Positions 37,592 through 50,442 of a DNA stretch of 64,000 nucleotides are shown here, piece after piece. The notes below the pieces were generated by a model. It was given only the letters and a program-made list of their open reading frames with translations. It searched no databases and was not told where the DNA came from. Source of the stretch: Saccostrea echinata (Eukaryota); NCBI RefSeq assembly GCF_033153115.1, contig NW_026889795.1, positions 7,750,001 through 7,814,000 on the forward strand. The letters run 5' to 3'. The position numbers and the translations under genes were made by a program. The first letter of the stretch is position 1, and every line of letters starts with the position of its first letter.

Positions 37592-40500
37592 TTATTTTGA
37601 ATATTTAACACGCTGTTCACTTCCGATCTCAGTATAACCCCGGCGTCTGGAGGAAGAACCTGTCCAGTTACATTGTTTAATGACCAAAACCAGAGACAAG
37701 AGGAGGAACCCAAAGAGGAAAACCATCATAAACACCACCATAACGACATACGACGTGTAGTTTATGCTAAAGATGTGAGTATCATAGGATTCATCTTCAT
37801 GTTCTTCGTGTCCTTTGGTGGTGATGTCAGATACAGCTGAAATTGAGATTAAAATAACGTAACTCTCATTTTCATTTCCTAGGTCGGAAAAATATCATCA
37901 TTGATTGCGAATTTTCAAGAAATTAGAATCGAATTACCAGGCAGCTGTAAAAAATTGTCATCTTCTCTGTCAGATAGGGATTTTTTCTCTGATTGTGACT
38001 TTGAGGAGGATTTAGAATTGAATTCCGCTTTGAAATTCCAACATTTTGGAAAATGTGGGGGAGGTTTTGGCATCTCATGTGGCTCCCCAACCTGTATAAC
38101 AACGTCCATCCCCAGGCTCATGTGGTCATCGAGATGGCAGTGCATGAACCAAAATCCTACAAATATTCTAAATATGACAGTGCTTAACCAAAATCGTTCA
38201 AAAGGTAATAATTATTTATATGCCAAAAAATCCAATTACATGAATCTATATTTAAGCAATGCAACCAAGTTGGAAAATAACATACCTGGGTTGTTTGTTT
38301 GTAGTCGAACAACAACATAGCCCCTAAAAGGCACCACCACCGTATCTTTGTGGGGCGGATCTACAATGTTTATATCTGGAATGTTACCATACTCCCAGCT
38401 AGAATTCCGCCATCTTGCTTTGCTGTAGTTATTGAAATATTCTATGTCTTGATTTTCCTTCTCAATTAGTCCTGTTGTCTTGTTGATAACTGGGAGCCCG
38501 TACTTTAGGACGTGGAAACGATTTCCATGGAGATGTATAGGGTGAGCGGATCCCCTGGTTACGTTAACTACAAGCACCATTCGAAAATCGCTAAAAATTT
38601 TGAGCAAAAACAATAGACTTCATTTTTTTTAAACAAATCAAATTGGAATATTATTTCTGGTTTTCTTACTCGTAGTTTTAGCTTAGAATATATTCTTATT
38701 TTTAAGAGAAAAGAAAATATTTCAGTTAATTAATGAACGGCACTGGGAATTAAAAGTGAATAGTAATAAGTCTTTTACAAAACAAATCAATTAAGTTTAA
38801 AAAAAAGTATATTAAAAAATAAATCAAGAGGCCCAGGGGCCACAACATTCACCTGAGTAATTATGGCCCTTCTGTCCTTCATCAGCAGATTCTTTCTTAT
38901 ATAATATATTCCGATATAAAACATTGATCAAATATTATGGCCACACTCTACCCAGGAGGTCATGCTTTGAAAAAAAATCAATTTAATCTACCAGAGGACT
39001 CTTCCATATGAATATGACTAATCATGCAAGGTTTTTCTGCTCTTGATAGAAAGATTTTGAAAGATTTGAAGATTTTTCCTTTGCATTCCTATGGAAAACA
39101 TTGATTGCCCATTCTGACTCCACCTTATCCCCGGGGTCATGATTTGAACAAACTGGATCTACACTTCCTGCGGGTGCTTCCAAATATTTATGACTAATCA
39201 AGGCTTTGCTATTCCTAGGAAAAAAGATTTTTAAAGACTTCTACTATATATTCCTTGTGAAACACTGATCCCCCATTTCTGCCCCACCCTACACCAAGGG
39301 GCTATGATTTGAACATACTTTTACACTACCTAAGAATAATTCCATATGAATATGAATGATAATGAATTTGCTGTTCTTGTAGAAGAAGGTTTTTAAAAGA
39401 TATTTTTATACAATCCTATATATAACTCTGATCGCCTGTTGTGGCTCCTACCTACCCTCGGGGCTAATAATTTTGCAAAAAAAATGAATATACACTGGCT
39501 GACGATGTTTCAGAATAAATATGACTAATAAGGACTTTGTTTCTCTTTAGAAGAAGAATTTTAAAGATCTTTCCAATATATTCCTATGCTAAACTTTGAT
39601 CCCCTATCGTGGCCCCGCCCTATTCCTGGGAGTCATGTTTGAACAAATTGTAATCTACAGTATGTAATGTGGTTTTTCAGAATTTTTTTTATAAGCCACT
39701 GAATTCTTAATTACCTCTCTTTAAAAGAAGGCTTGAAACTTCCTGTGAATGCTTTTTTGCAAGTTTGATTGAAATTAGCCTGTGGTTCTGGAGAAGTCGA
39801 AAAAGTGAATAATTTACAGACCACAAATTACACACAGACAGAGGGACGCAGGACACTTACTGATCAGAAAGCTCACTTGAGCCTTCAGCTAAGGTGAGGT
39901 TCAAAGCAAAAAAAATATTCCTTCTAGTAGGCATGGCCATGGAAAACACATTTATTTAGATTAAGAAAAAACGGAATTGATAATTCTTCTACCCTCAGCC
40001 GTCAATACAAGCTGTGCTGTTTTCCACGCATCCAGCTTAACAACGTGAGTACAGCGGCAGTATACGCCACAGTTGTTCATGTGGTCGTTATTACATACAA
40101 TGTTCCTGTCTTCTACAATATCTGGAAATACCTACAATAAACGGTTTACATTACTGAACTGGCAAGAAATTTAATTTGTCAGACTAAAAAATTATGCGTT
40201 TGAAAACTGCATTAGGGAAAGGTTTGTCGCCATTTTGTTTTCCCCTTATTCACCCACGTTGCCTTTGGGCGAAGTAAAATCGGATCCACTTGAAAATGGT
40301 AGATTTGTCTCTTCGTAATGTTTTTTTGGCGAAGCCAATTAAAAACAAAAGATTGAATATAATGAAAGCGTACCTGAAGGGGCATTGGTGGACTTTTGTA
40401 ATGAATTGTGTTCACTGCCGGTCGACGACGCATCGAGTCAGTCCCTAAAAATTCGAATATTTTCAAAATAATGCTTCTGTAAATATGTCAAAAAATATAT

Positions 40501-43500
40501 AATTTGAAAGAAATGTTTAATCTTCATTGTGAGATTTATTTTTAAACCAATACGTAACCTCTGAAATTAAAGTTCAGAAAGATCTCCTGAAAATTGTCAC
40601 GTGAAGTGGGAACGTCTACAGGATTTGTATTACTATGTTGTGATGATGCCCTTAGATCCACCACAGATAGACATTTCGTGTATGGCTCCCTTTTAGCCAT
40701 CGTTATAAGACTACAAATAAATGTTCATATCAATAGAATAATATAACTGTCCTTGAACATTGACTGATACAACGAGAACTCTTAATTATCTCAAATTATT
40801 TCACAATTTGCTTCATTTTTCATGGCGTCTTTTTAGTTCCAATATGGAAAGATAACTAGGAATTTGATAAAACTATATTTAACATAGTATAAATCTTGTC
40901 TATTTGTTCTGACGCTGCATTTGTCATTAAGCAGCGATATGAGGTTTAAAAGTGAGTGTCCTTATACGAAAGCATAACATAATAATAATAAAATAAATAT
41001 GACGTTTTAAACAAATCAAACAGCTTGCTAGAACTAGAATTATATTTGAAAAATTTTGGGGGATTTTGTAGAGGAAAAAAACGGTTATCGTTTGAAAATA
41101 ATTAACTTTCATGTGCATGATGAGATTTATCAAATGGTGGAAACTGTGATCGCACTTTAATAACACGATCATTTGTTGAGCATTGAAATCACCAAAATTA
41201 TGTTCTACACTTGTACACTTTTTGTTGCGTGATGACGTCACAATATACCTCCAGTGACAATTGGTCATAACACAAGGTTCCCGCTCTGAGCATTCCCTCT
41301 CTTCTGTGTCAGGTAAATCATCTTCTGCTTCATTGTAATGAAGCTGTGCAAAGCTTACATTTGGTTTCACTGGATTCTGTCAAATAAAGATACATGCATC
41401 ACCAAATACGATAAATACGATAAAAAAACAAAGCCAGACGTTAAAATTTATAAATATAGTGAGACAATTCGTACATTTTTGCCTCATTCATTTTTTACAT
41501 TGATTTTAAAACATGGAAAAACGTCACGAAAAACAATCTCGCCCGTTCTAGCTAACAAGATCACTGTCCTATAAACTTTCGAACAGAAATTTCTATTTGT
41601 AAACAAAGATCAAGAGTGAGTACTTGGTGGAATTTCTTGAACACCCTCCCCCCCCCCCCGGTTTCATGTCTGCGTTCGTTGAAGGATCATTGCAACTTCG
41701 ATATGTGACGTGCCAAGTAATGTCCTTTAAATCAATGAAATAAATAAAGTTTATAAACATTTACTTACATGATTGTAATCCATTACTTCTGTTGTTTCTA
41801 CGCGTATCCAGTAGTTTCCAGGAGTGTTATTTGCGTATAAAATGACGTCATAGCTTTCTCCGGGGCTAATGAGGAGGAAATCGATGTAAATTGGGGCCAG
41901 GTCACCTCCATCTGTATCGGTCAGTAACAGTTTGTGCTGTAGATATTAAAATGCATGCTGTAAACTTTGATTACAGAAGTATTTTCAATAATAAATACAT
42001 ATTTATTTTTATGCAACCTTTAGGTTTAAAAATGTTCATGCAGGTTTAACTATATCATAACCTAAGATTAAATTATAGGAAGTAAAAAAAATCATACACA
42101 AAGGAAACAGTTTAAATATTTTAAAAGTTCTGTAAAATATGCATACTACAAAGATCATCAATGCATATTCTAAGGTGAAATAAATCTAACTGTTGTTTTT
42201 GCTTTGTTTTTTTTTTTTTTAAGAATTAACCTTATCAATGGAAATTTTGTATTCTCCTGTCATGCCCGAGTTAATGACTCGGAATCTGGTATAGCTGTTA
42301 GAGGCTACATTGAATATCTCCAGTGGTATCGCACGCTGTTGCTCTGAGCTGTCATCTGAAACTGAAAGTATATTATACTCTTATCAAAAGGGTTTTATAA
42401 TAGGATTTCTCCTGTCCGTTTACAACAATAATAAACTACATCGTGTAAGCTAGTCATGATCAAATAGTATTGGCATGGAGGGTAATTCTTGGTACATTAG
42501 TACAAATTGTGTGGTTAACGCAAAATATTCCTATTGGTATTCTATGTATAAATAACCCCCAGTCGGTAGGTGGAGACTATTTTGCAATACCAGTCTTAGA
42601 ATTTTTTTTTTTGTGCTTAGTAGAAATATAAATATAAAGACATTGGTACTCCACAAGTATATTTTTTCGCGTTTTAGGTGTGAATACGCCCACGCGTATA
42701 ACAGTATTACAATATCAACATTACATGGAAATAAATACCATCTAAGGATTGCAATGCAGTGTATCCCTAGTCGAAGGATACTAACGAACAGTATTTCTTT
42801 GCTTATTAGCTTACAGTATCTAGTTTACCCGCTCAAAGGAGTTTTGTAAGGAATCCTAATATATTATCACGAAATTCATTTAATTTTATTATCTCATAAA
42901 TATCTAACATATCACTGGATCGTATTTTGCCTGACACATTTTATATGAATTATTAGACATTCGATTTAATACTGCATTGGACTTCGTAATGCACCATTTA
43001 CCTGATCAATACGCAATTGCAAGGCTCAGGGAAGGTATGCTTACTCCTCCTTGGCACTTGATCCCAAGTCTAGAATTTCACTGCGTCAGTATTTGGTGCT
43101 GTGCTTACAGGTTTGTCTTGTTTGTAAGGCATTTTAAAGATCCATATCTGTTCATTATCTTCATCTTTTTCATTCTATTTTTTTTAGTAACTCGTTTTCC
43201 CAGTCAGAGCATTATAGTTGGGTATTGTGATTTAGTATCACGATGTGTATTTAATTGTTTCTATACCTACAGTATTTCGTTTTCCCGTTCATCAAAGCAT
43301 TATTATAAGGTACTGTCAAGTAATATCACGGTGTGTATTTAATCAGTTGATTCGATACGCAAGAGCATGCTCTACGTATGTACAATATCTAAAACGAGGT
43401 AAATTATTGACAAATAAGTTGATGAAACAAGAATATCAGCTGTCTCGTTTAAAGTCATCATTTCGTAAGTTCTATGGTCGATACAATGACCTTGTCAGCA

Positions 43501-46210
43501 AATACAATTTATCATTGAGTCAAATGCTGACTGACGTTTTTTATACTAATTGTTAGGCCATTATTTACACACTGAATTTCGACGGATTTTTCCGTTATTT
43601 CCCGATCATGACAAGGAGCACACGGCGGGTGTGACCGGTCGGCAGGGGATGCTCACTCCTCCATGGCACCTGATCCCACCTCTGATGTTTGGAGGTCCGT
43701 GTTTGCTCTGCTCCTATTTTGTATTGTATAATGGACTTTTGAGCTTGAATACTGTTCGTTATCTCCATATATTTCACTTACAATATTTCGTTTTCCGGTT
43801 CACCAAGGCATTATTATAAGGCATTGTCAAGTAATTTCTCGGTGTGTATTTAATTGTTTCTATACTTACAATATTTCATTTTCTCATTTACCAGGGCATT
43901 ATTATAAGGCATTGTCAACTTACATCACCGTGTTAATTTTATTGTTTCTATACGTACAATATTTCGTTTTTCCAGTTAACCAGGGCCTTAAGCAGCTCTG
44001 TTTAGGCTGCATAAAGAGGGCGGAGCCTAATTTATACGGGAAAAGTTTACTGTGACATCACACAAATATAGCAATTCCTCGCAATAACAGAAAATGAAAC
44101 AATTTGCGAATCTAAACTGCACAAGAGTAATGAACTACATCAAAACTTACCACTGCATTCATTTTTGTCGCTAGTTAAATCCCACACAGCAAGATATAAA
44201 CAAGTCACTGATCGCAATGCACTTGTCGACATGACGTCATCATGGTAAAGTTTGACGGATCAAGTAATTTTTCACAGTGAAAAATGCATTTTATTATTAA
44301 AGAGAATATTATTTGAAAATCTTAGGTAGACCATTAATACAAATCTGAAACGTTTGTTTAGTGCCATTCTTTAAAAAATATCGAGAGAATGTGTTGAATT
44401 AATTCTACCGTGTTTTTGTCTACAGAGTGTGCATGTTTCATGCTGAGGTGCCTCATTAAATCACATTTTCGCAAGGGCATACACTTAATAGATCTTGACC
44501 ATTTTTTGAATACACATAATGGACATATTCCTTAACTTGAAAGGTGCTGCTACTTCCCTGAAATCGATAGCATAACTTGATAAATACATAAAATACTTGG
44601 TTTCGACATTAGCAAGATAACTTGAAATTTAAACTAATAAAATGCGAATTCTATTTAAAGCAGCAGGACTTTCCATAAACTACAAGTTATGTAGAAAAAA
44701 TCTATTACTTTAATTTTTAATTTTAACTAGGGTATGCCCTTGCGATATTGAAATTTGTTTGTGACCTACATACAGTACACATTACATGCATTTATCACGT
44801 GACTATCAAATAACGTGACCAAACCAAATTCAGTACAGAGCGGTGTATATAATGTTATTTCAAAGAATGTTAAAGTCATAAGATAATATAGTACCATTAC
44901 AAAATTAAAATTCATTTTAAAAAGGTATGTATTTATGCACGTTTATATTCTGTTGATTTCTTCGAAGTACGCCTTAACAGTGCTGCGTATTATAAAGCCC
45001 TACCAAGAAATATCACGGTGTTTATTTCATTGTTTCTATTCTAACAATATTTTGTTTTCCGGTTCACCAGGGCATTTTTATAAGGCATTGTCAAGTAATT
45101 TCTCGGTGTGTATTACATTGTTTCTATACGTACAATATTTCGTTTTCCCGTTCACCAGGGCATTATTATAAGGCATCGTCAGACTGGATAGAGACCCGTC
45201 ATAGGTAAGCTTCGTCTGGAGACACTCATCTGAATCCATATTCTTTACAAACCTTTTATTAAAATTTAAAGTAAGAATATTCTTAATGTTTAATTATGAT
45301 CTAAAATGCAACACTATGGATAATTTTGTGTACCCTTTTATTTTTTATTTGTCAAGAATAGATGTCAATGTGTATATGATACATGTAAATGTACAAGATG
45401 TCATCGTGTAAATGATACATGTAAATGTACAAGATGTCATCGTGTATATGATACATGTAAATGTACAAGATGTCATTGTGTATAAAATACATGTAAATGT
45501 ACAAGATGTCATCGTGTATATGATACATGTAAATGTACAAGATGTCATCGTGTATATGACACATGTAAATGCACAAGATGTCATCGTGTTTATGATACAT
45601 GTAAATGTACAAGATGTCATCGTGTTTATGATACATGTAAATGTACAAGATGTCATCTTGTATATAATACATGTAAATGTACAAGATGTCATCGTGTATA
45701 TGACACATGTAAATGTACAAGATGCCATTGTGTATATAATACATGTAAATGTACAAGATGTCATTGTGTATATGATACATGTAAATGTACAAGATGTCAT
45801 CATGTATATGATACATGTAAATGTACAAGATGTCATCGTGTATATGATACATGTAAATGTACAAGATGTCATCGTGTAAATGATACATGTAAATGTACAA
45901 GATGTCATCGTGTATATGATACATGTAAATGTACAAGATGTCATCGTGTATATGATACATGTAAATGTACAAGATGTCATCGTGTATATGATACATGTAA
46001 ATGTACAAGAATCATTAATAAATCAAGGTTTTCCGGGAAGCATAATGAAAAATTCAATTAGGAAAACTAGACCTTGTTAATCCATGGCTTTATTATTTTT
46101 TTATTATCTCCTTGCAGGTTTCTTCAATTTTACACAACAGAGATCAGAAGAAATACATGTATATTCTTCCTGTGGACAAACAATTAGACAAAACTTTGTT
46201 TTAGAGTATA

Positions 46211-46281
<71 letters not shown>

Positions 46282-46498
46282 ATGTGATTACTTCGAAATC
46301 ATGTGAAACATGTATAAGATAATTATACACACATTCAACCATCAAACTACTTACCCCCCTCTTTCATCGTCTGTCTTTCTCTCTCTCTCTCTGAGTTTTG
46401 GATTACTTCGAAATCATGTCATAATGGTATAATATATACCTTCATTCATCCATTTACCAATCCATCTACTTACCGCTGCTTCTTTCTCTCTCCGCCTC

Positions 46499-46549
<51 letters not shown>

Positions 46550-49500
46550 CTACTTACGGTAACATATACCACTCCTGAAATTTTACTAGCTGGAGGTCAC
46601 TCTCGGGGTATGTCCAGTCTTGTACCATGAATACAAAATCGTCATCAGCTTTGGGAACATCATTTCTCTGTGGAAGATATACACGTAGGGATACCAAGTT
46701 ATTTGATTCTTTGGAGATAAGCTTTGCTTTCTTTATGATTTATATTATGTTGAAGAAATTGAGATCATACTATCTTATCAATTTAAATTATCTGAGGTTT
46801 TTTCATTACGTTATTAAGTTCGATTGGATTAAATGCCTGTTCTTCTCAGTAAATGGATTAAGTTGGATTGGTTAATTTGTTCAGATTGATTAGGTTACAA
46901 AGGTAAACTTGCTCTTGCAGTTGAATTAGGTTACATAGAATTTCCTCAGTACGTTTGAGCTAATGGGTGATTCTGTTCAGTAGGATTGGGCTATGTAGGT
47001 TTTGTGGATTTGTTCAGTTAAATTGGATTAGGTTACATAGGTGTATTTGTTCAGTTAGATTGGGCTGCAGACTTAAGGATCTTTTTTTGTTGTTGTTGTT
47101 TGGTTGGATTGGGCTACATAGGTGAATCTGTTCAGGTGAATTATGCGACATAGGTGAAATTGTTTAATTAGATTTGGCTATATTCATGATATTGGTGAAG
47201 TTGTTCAGTTGGATTTAGCTACATAAGTGCAGCTTGTTCAGTTGCATTAGGTTTCATAGCTTTGATTAAACTACATTAGTGTGTTTCTCCGTTGGATAAT
47301 CAGAAAGATATATAGTACACTGTACTCAGTTGGGTTAGAATATTAGTAACTTAATTAATCACCTCATTTCCTTTCCGAGGAAGGACAATAAAAGCACCTG
47401 CAAGGCCCATCGACCTCATAACACCGTGGTGTGCATGATACCAGTGTGTTCCCTGAGGATTAGCTGTGAACCTTAAATAAATCAAACAATTCATATTCCA
47501 TGTATTGCTCGTTAGTTAGTCATATTCTTCACGATATTAAAAAGAACATTCAAAATATGCATATTCAATTCGAAAGACGTCTCTAAAACACATAAAACAT
47601 AAGTCCTTTGGTATAATGAAAGATAAGTTCTGAAATGTTCAACTTCATTCATTTGGAAGATATTATAAAGGTAAAGATAAAATAGCATCAGTATTTTTCT
47701 TTATGAAGAAGCTGAAGATAACAAACAAAATAATACTAACAACACGAACCTTTGAACATGGTGAACATGTTTATATGGGCCGCAATATATATAAAATTCA
47801 TTTGTTATGTTGCGTACTAACGTACAATCTCCCAAAGGATCATGCAATAAATGTATGGCTGAAATACTTACACATAATTCAATAAAATAGCTTTTTTGTA
47901 ATGTACTTAAACTCTCCAACGGGATCATGCAATGAATGTATGAATGACATCAACACATGTCGGTAAAATAGATTTGTGTATTACGTATTAAAACTCTCCC
48001 AAGAGATAAAGCAATAAATAAATGAATGAAATACTAATAAAAAGTTATATACTAAAACTCTCCCAAGTACTGTTTGTATGACTGAAATACTCACAAATAA
48101 GCTATGTACTAAAACTCTCCCAAGTAATATTTGTATGACTTAAAACTTACAAATAAGTTATGTACTAAATCTCTCCCACGGTATAACATAATGAATGTAT
48201 GACTAAAACACTTACAAAAAAGTTATGTACTAGTCTAAAACCTTCCTAAGCAATGTTTGTATGACTGAAAAACTTACAAATAAGTTATTAACTAACACTC
48301 TCCCAAGCAATGTTTGTATGACTGAAAAACTTACACTTACAAATAAGTTATGTATAACTACTCTCCCATGGGGCCAAGCATTGAGTGTTTGACTGAGATA
48401 CTTACAAATAAGTAAACATCTGCCCCGGAAGTATCGGGCATTGTGTAACCATGGAGACACCATCCATATAAACAGAACCGTTCTGGGACATACCATGCCA
48501 GTGAAAGGTCACAGCCTCGTTTGCAAGGTCATTGTAAACATGAATTTTTACCTGAGAACAAAATCTGACACATTTTCTACTTTCACAGGACATATTCCTT
48601 TCATCTTGTAATCACTTAAATATAAATTTTGTTCGACAAAATTTGTCTTCGTTGTGATTTAAAAAAAGATGAATTCATTTTTAAGTTTATAATTCAAAAG
48701 TGTTTCAAACAGCACAATATCAACGAATTAGAGTTTCCACAACCATCTAAGTTTAGATTTAGAAAATACCATCGTCAAGGAACCAAGAAAGGTACATGTG
48801 TAAATTTTGAAAATTAGAAATTTAAAATTTTTAGAAACTTTTAATTTTTATAATAGAATTTGCATATTCTGCTTTCACTTCAATATTGCTCAGTTCGAAG
48901 TGATATAAGCAATTGCTTGCAATAGTAAATTTTCTACTTTCTTTTTTTTTCCAATTTAGTCACCATCGGATTGAAGTTCTGGAATTACATCATCAAGAAA
49001 TATAGCCTGTTTACTTACTCTTTGATTTTCATAAGCGGAAATCGTTGGTCCCGGAAACTGATTGTTGATGGCGAACATGAATCTGTAGTTGCCGTCAGCA
49101 GTTATTACTTCTTCCATTTCTAGCAATAAAACGATAGACATTAAGGAACATACACAACAAATTATAGTGTAGAGTTCTCTATGTTACAAACGATTATCAT
49201 TAAGTAACATACCACAACGTATTATAGTGTAGAGTACTCTATGTTACAAATGATAATCATAAAGTAACATACCATAACGAATTATAATGTAGAGTACTCT
49301 ATGTTACAAACATACCACAACGGATTATGTACAATACTCTATGTTACAAAACGATGTTGTTTATTAACATCAGTTCTCCATTAGGGTATACATGTATCAA
49401 CTTTTCAAGAGTAATCTCTACACGTATAGCTCCCGCCACATACAATTTTGTAGTATTTATCTAAACATTATAACTGTGACCAAATGACGTTGACCTATCC

Positions 49501-50442
49501 AGAAAACCTTGAACAATATTTATGGCTGTTTATGTTGGACAGAAGCTTTTGATATTTCTATGATACCCTGTGTTTTATAACGAATGAAGAAAACAAGAGG
49601 ATTAACAAAATAAGTACATTATATCATAGCATTGTTTGCAGGGGATGATGTTTAACAAGCATTCTATCATGGGAATTTTTTTCTTCTTTCAAATGGAAGC
49701 CCACTGCTACAACACAAACCATTGCATATTGAACATTACTTTTTACCCTCGCCAAGAGACATATTAGCGTAAAAAGGTAATTTGCTAATTTCCACATATT
49801 AAGGAAAAAATGATGCTTAATGCCTAAGGATTAAGATAAATATAGATTTTCAAAAATCATTAGTTGAAGAACCGAATGATATTCTTGGGTCCAAATTCGG
49901 AATACATATTTATTTTGCATAATACATCCCATATGAGTCAAGCAAAAGTTACATATATGACATAGAGTTACAATACACATTTTAAAATGGCTTTATAGCA
50001 CAAGGTTAAATCATGTATTTTCTGATCCTGGAAGAGGGTTTTTTTTTTTTTTTTGGTTTTTATACTCGTCTCTTTTACATAGTTGGTCTGCAATTTTTAA
50101 AGAAGAAAATACTGTAGTAAATAATTTTGAACCAAACAATTTGTTATAGATGATCTTACCTTCAGAGGTAACCGGTTTTTCTTCACAAAGATGGGCCACC
50201 CCATGTTCAGCGTCTGAGGTTTTTTTCATGAAAGTCCCATTTCTGAGGAAAACTGGGTTCCCTTCGTCGATCGTCCAGTTATAGGCTACCATGGTCATAA
50301 TGTAATTAACACGTAGGATAAAGGTACATTCCTCGGCGGAATCCGGACAACTGGGTGTCACATCATGTTTAAAAGCAGACTCAACTCCAGCGATTATAAT
50401 AAATAGGTGAAACGTATTTAGAAACTTTTTACAGACAAGCAT
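37592..50442 (-). CDS. Membrane-anchored laccase-like multicopper oxidase, 15 coding exons, ~800 aa
   Basis: Exons 50160-50442, 49019-49119, 48406-48551, 47363-47471, 46558-46667, 45134-45252, 42231-42361, 41769-41936, 41249-41376, 40559-40710, 40374-40444, 39993-40131, 38286-38567, 37938-38156 and 37592-37836. Total 2403 nt, all GT-AG and phase-compatible. Signal peptide; HWHG, WYHAH, HPIHLHG and [12 protein letters not shown] Cu motifs; C-terminal [25 protein letters not shown]; AATAAA at 37325-37330. Confidence 0.93.
38823..39902. mobile_element. Helentron/Helitron-N2-type element with ~5 diverged Cg170-like units, in laccase intron 12
   Basis: CAAGAGGCCCAGGGGCCAC...CACCTGAG start, (GTGGCC)CC(A/G)CCCTA units, terminal TGATCAGAAAGCTCACTTGAGCCTTCAGCTAAGGTGAG. 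Confidence 0.8.
42975..43165 (+). mobile_element. Penelope-like 3' end fragment
   Basis: GGTATGCTTACTCCTCCTTGGCACTTGATCCC motif. Confidence 0.6.
43341..43776 (+). mobile_element. 5'-truncated Penelope-like (possibly Naiad-type) retroelement: RT C-terminus + 3' UTR
   Basis: Encodes [66 protein letters not shown], then the conserved GGGGATGCTCACTCCTCCATGGCACCTGATCCCACC UTR. No endonuclease follows the RT. Confidence 0.75.
43991..44987. mobile_element. ~1-kb non-autonomous TIR element, TA TSD
   Basis: TA|AGCAGCTCTGTTTAGGC ... GCCTTAACAGTGCTGCG|TA. Interrupts one 88-bp unit at GGGC(C/A)TTA; a second family member ends at 59717. Confidence 0.8.
45361..46009. repeat. 36-bp minisatellite x ~18 in laccase intron 5
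   Basis: Unit GATGTCATCGTGTATATGATACATGTAAATGTACAA, highly homogeneous. Confidence 0.97.
46214..46278. repeat. (CT)n microsatellite
   Basis: About 32 CT units; another (CT)n tract at ~46499-46546. Confidence 0.95.
46815..47345. repeat. Degenerate ~38-bp tandem repeat filling most of laccase intron 4
   Basis: Recurrent TTGTTCAGTT(G/A)GATT(A/G)GG(T/C)TACATAGG. Confidence 0.75.
47790..48413 (-). repeat. ~56-65-bp tandem array starting at the laccase exon-3 donor
   Basis: Minus ACTTATTT|GTAAGT...CAGTCA...TGGGAGAG...TACATA. Donor copies at ~48405 (true), 48340, 48277, 48215, 48150, 48094 and 47871; copies decay away from the exon. Confidence 0.85.
49120..49355 (-). repeat. ~60-bp tandem array ending at the laccase exon-2 acceptor
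   Basis: Plus unit ACATACCACAACG(T/A)ATTATAGTGTAGAGTACTCTATGTTACAAA(C/T)GAT.ATCAT.AAGTA x ~4. The last partial copy is the true acceptor region. Confidence 0.8.

Follow-up and report, generated by a model that had tools for sequence, protein, structure and literature searches.

Tandem duplications that span an exon-intron boundary have been described in amphioxus under the name 'mirages', for instance in the globin genes BflGb6 and BflGb9 (Ebner et al. 2010, PMC3087553). In that account the genes are spliced normally and the repeats undergo concerted evolution, and mirages are proposed to be able to create new intron positions. Further amphioxus cases are the Adh3 mirage (Canestro et al. 2002, as cited in PMC3087553) and one in PGBD5 (PMC3902484). 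In the human F7 gene, intron 7 carries a 37-bp VNTR, and splicing selects the donor lying furthest upstream even where others are stronger (Borensztajn et al. 2006, PMC1557585). Variable internal tandem repeats have also been reported in the paralogs of human segmental duplications (De Grassi and Ciccarelli 2009, PMC2812944).

Here, arrays of this kind were analysed in a laccase subfamily of the oyster Saccostrea echinata, comprising gene B, the A-type paralogs A1, A2 and A3, and paralog C. The amphioxus mirages resemble the oyster arrays in their boundary-spanning tandem units, many but not all of which carry a GT, in their variable copy number and in leaving normal splicing unaffected; a unit identity of 81-100% is listed as a further common feature. 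The oyster arrays differ in that their host is a bivalve, paralogs bear two arrays, unrelated to each other, at one homologous donor, and two mobile elements interrupt the B array. As in the F7 repeat, the first unit lies across the exon-intron boundary, pseudo-donors follow downstream and the most upstream donor is used. By contrast, the F7 copies are reported to be identical and contiguous whilst those of gene B have diverged by 9-17% and are spread over 2 kb, and the F7 scanning rule was established in mammalian cells, not in oysters. In line with the human segmental-duplication paralogs, exon-intron boundary repeats differ between the oyster paralogs (9, 9 and 95 units in A1, A2 and A3). 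In the human cases as outlined in that report, however, one inherited repeat altered splicing or created introns, whereas no altered splicing was seen in the oyster contigs and the A and B arrays are unrelated. A literature search, with most subscription journals outside its reach, found no paper on oyster mirages. Our results indicate that the oyster arrays are splice-donor minisatellites of the mirage type, probably born separately in A and B and sharing exon 6 by chance, and that the B array probably persists as a harmless, decaying repeat.

Gene B and the 88-bp array at its exon 6 donor

The window, the whole 64,000-nucleotide stretch of DNA analysed (G000:C46:7,750,001-7,814,000, from a 923-Mb genome), contains gene B, which NCBI names Saccostrea echinata LOC133202238. 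In our own splice model the gene is open for 796 aa, and its exon 13 matches the NCBI model P0001 at 100%. Cu-oxidase_3, Cu-oxidase and Cu-oxidase_2 all scored above the Pfam cut-off in P0001 and in the A2 model P0002, identifying both as three-domain multicopper oxidases. A hydrophobic run in gene B predicts a C-terminal membrane anchor. The features of the gene and its array, in window positions, are as follows.

37592..50442, minus strand: gene B, an intact 15-exon laccase-like multicopper oxidase (splice model and P0001)
45134..45252, minus strand: exon 6, 119 nt, with the working donor GTACGT starting at 45133
42231..42361, minus strand: exon 7, with its acceptor at 42361 (contig joints and P0001)
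45089..45176, minus strand: unit 1, the real exon-intron junction and template of the array, donor GTACGT at 45133
45004..45088, minus strand: unit 2, weak donor GTTAGA at 45045; contig depth is zero in the bin 44994-45115
43991..45003, unstranded: insertion of ~1.0 kb, bounded by imperfect terminal inverted repeats of ~30 bp; related copies lie at 58681-59726 of the window and in L038
43776..43990, minus strand: units 3, 4 and 5 together
43990-43913, minus strand: unit 3, donor GTACGT at 43957
43912-43825, minus strand: unit 4, donor GTAAGT at 43869
43824-43776, minus strand: unit 5, donor GTAAGT at 43781; the unit continues with its tail at 43339-43314, past an inserted repeat
43340..43776, unstranded: that dispersed repeat of ~430 bp, inserted just past the unit 5 donor
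43190..43339, minus strand: the unit 5 tail, unit 6 and decayed unit 7 together
43313-43226, minus strand: unit 6, donor GTAGGT at 43270
near 43225-43190, minus strand: unit 7, decayed, donor lost

The unit is 88 bp long and consists of 43 nt of exon 6 (14 codons plus 1 nt) and 45 nt of intron. Alignment of the array bore out these dimensions, which had been given in a sequence-only reading of the same DNA, and the other statements of that reading about the sequence were all verified. We found about 7 units on the minus strand over 45176-43190, ~6 of them copies beyond the working junction. As in mirages, the unit spans the real exon-intron boundary and its copies run head to tail into the intron, with 5 extra GT donors. 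Going beyond the sequence-only reading, we found that the array is not contiguous: two insertions split it, and the units adjoin at 88-bp spacing in two blocks. The ~1.0-kb insertion appears to be a non-autonomous DNA-transposon-like element, and the ~430-bp repeat gave 49 blastn hits in 1.46 Mb, with many related copies among RNA-like contigs.

The intron half of the 88-bp unit had no other occurrence in the 1.46 Mb examined, and a DNA search of the oyster's own genome with the B unit and exon 6 found copies at this locus alone. Since swapped-intron controls at donors gave 5 matches in 5949 trials and the intron half is unique in the sequence examined, the B array is not a product of chance.

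A 4-nt match (TGAC) lies directly before both breakpoints. It is likely that 88 bp spanning the exon 6 donor were duplicated in tandem once B had separated from its paralogs, and the first duplication was perhaps aided by this match. Slippage or unequal exchange would then have led, in a few further rounds, to about 7 units. The two mobile elements would have inserted later, and the copies would then have drifted by point changes. The duplication may have been tolerated as unit 1 leaves the exon and donor intact and the spliceosome would take the upstream site.

Splicing at the array and decay of its copies

Gene B was represented in five runs, all of them Logan contigs and none recorded as RNA, whose RNA status was judged by guess and from exon-to-exon joints. 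The joint from the working donor to exon 7 (45134-42361) was present in all four runs examined, which derive from at most 3 samples and 2 studies. In each run it lay within one long contig (1325-2123 nt, depth 29-114) spanning exons 6, 7 and 8. No downstream-donor joint was found in the 4 runs among the best-ranked joints listed, beyond which lay 44 weaker ones. The authentic first donor is thus used in gene B in all four of these runs, as in mirages, in contigs in which rare forms are not visible. Rare forms are lost from contigs and would also be depleted by NMD, so these joints show the dominant product only. Array stretches without contig cover were not counted as evidence of silence. For A2, the first donor was joined to exon 7 in runs X1 and X2, and in X6, labelled as another organism, an intron of equal length is skipped. 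Exon cover was lacking in X5, giving a first-donor joint in 3 of 4 runs for the A-type. By analogy with F7, a first-donor rule may apply in the oyster, and the contig joints are consistent with this. As splicing takes the first donor, the B array likely persists as a harmless repeat.

Compared with unit 1, the B copies differ at 18/204 positions in their exon part (8.8%) and at 26/153 in their intron part (17%). This 1:2 ratio fits constraint on the real exon alone, with everything else drifting on both branches. All 5 B copies extending as far as the donor retained the GT, although 0/10 changed sites is not significant at ~12% divergence. The B copies thus appear to decay neutrally.

The sequence-only reading had noted that the GTAAGT copies at 43869 and 43781 better the true GTACGT and that using them would add stops, and had suggested that they could act as decoy or NMD-coupled donors. 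Both observations were confirmed. With a donor weight matrix, units 4 and 5 score 2.2 bits against 0.6 for the working donor. A transcript that reads through the true exon 6 donor gains 19 codons before a stop, and splicing at any of the downstream donors would therefore introduce one; this stop is premature, with eight junctions further downstream, as expected of AS-NMD. Decoy or alternative donors could in this way route part of the transcript to NMD and tune laccase output, and NMD would conceal such forms in ordinary RNA. The remaining evidence makes this role highly improbable. First-donor joints alone were observed among those listed, the stronger copies are 1.26-1.35 kb inside the intron, and the exon-side match (ATT) is poor in all copies. 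In the F7 work, as reported for mammalian cells, stronger downstream copies offered no competition unless perfect (PMC1557585). There was no sign of donor protection in A3, where the GT is broken in 14/95 units. Paralogs C and A1-A3 all carry GTAAGT at this junction. GTAAGT is therefore probably the ancestral state, from which the working donor of B would have drifted to GTACGT, and selection is not needed to explain the stronger copies. Taken together, the first-donor joints, the apparent neutral decay and the probable ancestry of GTAAGT speak against the decoy suggestion.

Probable separate amplifications in the A and B lineages

A search with exon 6 identified three further close paralogs (A2, A3 and C) on the same contig. 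A1, at the left end of the window, is broken, with an in-frame TGA in exon 6 and a stop in exon 8; no exons 14-15 were found nearby. It carries one array at the donor of interest.

166..670, minus strand: 56-bp donor array at A1 exon 6, about 9 units

The A-type unit of 56 bp holds 25 nt of exon and 31 nt of intron, as had been read from the sequence. It is common to A1, A2 and A3 in ~9, ~9 and ~95 copies, so that array length between paralogs ranges from about 9 to 95 units within one assembly. Across some 330 aligned residues, A2 and A3 share 92-94% identity with A1. Judged by its shared unit, the 56-bp array of the three genes is one inherited event. In a midpoint-rooted tree B and C form a clade (support 100/98), with an amino-acid identity of 74.5% between B and C and 68% between A and B. 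Intron 6 of paralog C showed no repeat (shuffle p=0.48).

As the A and B units have 25 nt in common, diagnostic sites were counted in place of building a repeat-unit tree. Four sites separate B from A in the alignment of these 25 nt. The A base occurred in none of the B copies, and the B base occurred in 0, 1, 0 and 0 of the 95 A3 units at the respective sites. The intron halves of the two units showed no similarity (shuffle p=0.66), both breakpoints differ and so do the unit lengths (56 vs 88 bp). These comparisons strongly suggest that the A and B arrays arose separately, after duplication, the 56-bp array having been built at the same donor by the A lineage on its own. Separate origins are the simplest account because C has no array and the units are unrelated. 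The sequence-only reading had reached two post-duplication amplifications from the codons that each array follows, an argument which alone is not decisive because concerted evolution could keep an array matched to its own exon. Its conclusion nevertheless gains support from the home-gene diagnostic bases, the unrelated introns, the differing breakpoints and the lack of an array in C.

A single array predating the A/(B,C) split would have to have been matched to each exon by turnover, re-seeded with new unit lengths and lost in C. Concerted evolution, which the amphioxus globin report describes for mirages (PMC3087553), would suffice for each array to follow its exon, and the intron half of the A unit has a 7-mer in common with the upstream exon (p=0.08). 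Such an array would, however, need a clean loss in C and would have to outlast ~32% amino-acid divergence, though insertions have already split the B array and its copies are decaying. With the unit lengths, both breakpoints and the intron halves also set against it, a single ancestral array is very unlikely. An exon-derived origin for the intron half of the A unit was not significant (p=0.08). A metagenome scan for orthologous loci found none.

Donor arrays at other junctions and their background rate

Donor arrays in the subfamily were not confined to exon 6. Gene B carries a second one.

48022..48415, minus strand: donor array in gene B with a ~57-62-bp unit of ~8 nt of exon 3 plus the donor, in at least 4 extra copies

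Paralog C has a donor array at exon 1, with a 28-bp unit that includes about 15 nt of exon. The A, B and C lineages thus hold 4 arrays at 41 donors, at three different junctions, and with these counts arrays would coincide at one junction by chance with a probability of 0.33. Further arrays near the window carry donor-like words; none was tied to an exon. A search with exon 13 gave 37 matches, about 18 of which look intronless by open-frame length. Exon 6 was examined in 5 genes of the subfamily and in 8 further multi-exon genes, leaving out C25:3.20M (a copy of the C35 gene), C16:5.78M and C28. In the eight other multi-exon laccases, we found multi-copy arrays at 0/98 donors and at 0/8 of the homologous introns. 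This result, together with the arrays at B exon 3 and C exon 1, gives no support to the special tendency of this junction which the sequence-only reading had raised.

As a control, exons were mapped in 12 dynein heavy-chain genes that were not picked for arrays, using external dynein proteins solely as exon guides. We called 619 junction pairs and tested 596 introns, 23 having been dropped because no site was called, the intron was shorter than 60 nt or the donor scored poorly. One of the 10 donor matches (D29 54523) was removed as an acceptor-array copy mis-called as an exon. A downstream junction copy was present at 9/595 donors, with at least 2 copies in 5 of them, and an upstream copy at 11/596 acceptors, for which the swapped-intron controls gave 4 matches in 5949 trials. 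Random unmasked positions in intron interiors had a downstream near-copy in 116/3656 cases (3.2%). Mirages are thus common here, and in the dynein genes splice sites are no richer in such copies than intron interiors. The scans reached over 600 nt in the dynein genes and 2000 nt in the laccases. Donor calls were automatic, from a weight matrix, and some were wrong (e.g. C65_1215 intron 6 and A3 introns 1, 4, 5 and 7); two B coordinates were also off by one. The mis-called places were re-covered by junction alignment and TRF, which revealed no extra array.

At the dynein rate (0.8-1.5%), a shared junction would be met in 0.3-1% of three-lineage, 14-intron families. Once the two arrays that drew attention are set aside, the subfamily rate is weakly raised (2/39 vs 5/595, p=0.06). 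Because of the low figure per family, the chance reading leans on this raised rate or on selection among many families, and a many-family scan will meet such shared-junction coincidences. Most likely, A and B both carry an array at exon 6 by chance, in a subfamily that often makes such arrays, and the coincidence is weak evidence of a hotspot.

A real hotspot, at which sequence or history favours duplication and arrays recur whilst still functionless, is unlikely but would account for an array at this donor in 2/3 lineages, for which chance at the dynein rate gives 0.3-1% per family. One version links it to a moved intron. In 8/8 other multi-exon laccases the intron follows N-G-x-G (phase 1), whereas in A, B and C it lies 9 nt further downstream, after N-G-K-T-x-Y-F; the 8 laccases with the other position have no array. 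Mirages are a proposed route to new intron positions in the cited part of Ebner et al. (PMC3087553). The exon 6 donor could then be a young, shifted junction which arose from a boundary duplication and is still prone to re-amplification. This combination of mirage-driven intron sliding and a recurrent hotspot seems improbable. Paralog C has the same shifted intron without a trace of a repeat (p=0.48), other donors of B and C bear arrays too, the direction of the 9-nt shift is unrooted in a midpoint-rooted tree, and the events number only two. Were the hotspot or the intron-sliding reading to hold, a way of moving introns that has been proposed but seldom observed would gain direct support.

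With the first splice signal alone seen in RNA and repeats of this sort at about 1 in 100 sampled splice sites, the B array is probably a commonplace, decaying repeat of an already known type. It is most likely one more mirage, of little import as such. The 12 dynein genes provide a first rough oyster rate of ~1-2% of donors and of acceptors, which by extrapolation implies thousands of such arrays genome-wide. In view of this high base rate, donor arrays should not be taken as regulatory by default. The A-type paralogs, with 9 vs 95 near-identical donors, provide a natural, non-mammalian setting in which to test the first-donor rule.

Intron position at the exon 6/7 junction

The laccase-like genes A, B and C carry a homologous intron at the exon 6/7 junction, positioned 9 nt more 3' than in the multi-exon laccases of C65 (six genes), C35 and C16. 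The introns of these two groups constitute a near-intron pair, in which the shift may have run in either direction.

Further arrays in genes A, B and C and partial copies of gene B

Gene B and its sister paralog C each carry a further donor mirage, a tandem minisatellite whose unit spans the exon-intron boundary and copies the splice signal into the intron. Gene B also contains ordinary intronic minisatellites, and broken partial copies of it lie elsewhere in the assembly (G000).

Window 48022-48415 (-): second donor mirage of gene B, at exon 3; unit ~57-62 bp, ~8 nt exonic
G000:C46:~2878400-2878946 (-), L037: decayed donor mirage at paralog C exon 1; 28-bp unit
Window 49129-49311: ordinary minisatellite, gene B; 60-bp array ending ~10 nt upstream of the exon 2 acceptor
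Window 45360-46010: ordinary minisatellite, gene B intron 5; 36-bp x18 array
G000:C3:2.49-2.505M, L046-L048: broken partial gene B copy with exons 7-15 present
~82-85 kb left of the window, L015 region: broken partial gene B copies (exon 12; exons 14-15)
G000:C46:7535594-7540732, L040-L041: A3 intron 6 donor array; 5.1 kb, 95 donor-bearing units

The extra donors in the exon 3 mirage are GTAAGT and GTGAGT. The A3 array fills nearly all of its intron and shows higher-order periods of 214, 270 and 326 bp. Exon 1 of A3 is apparently duplicated in tandem (L041, G000:C46:7545559 and 7544976). Exons 1-5 of A2 were not found in 7.52-7.59 Mb of C46.

Dynein genes and other laccase-like loci

Clear mirages, both donor and acceptor, were observed in several dynein heavy-chain genes (loci L096-L155). 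They are concentrated in genes on C29, C42, C9 and C33, with units of ~34-99 bp. The genome also holds ~18 laccase-like loci that appear to lack introns and whose open frames span 446-754 aa (on C8, C1, C11, C15, C54 and other contigs of G000), several of which form a cluster on C8.
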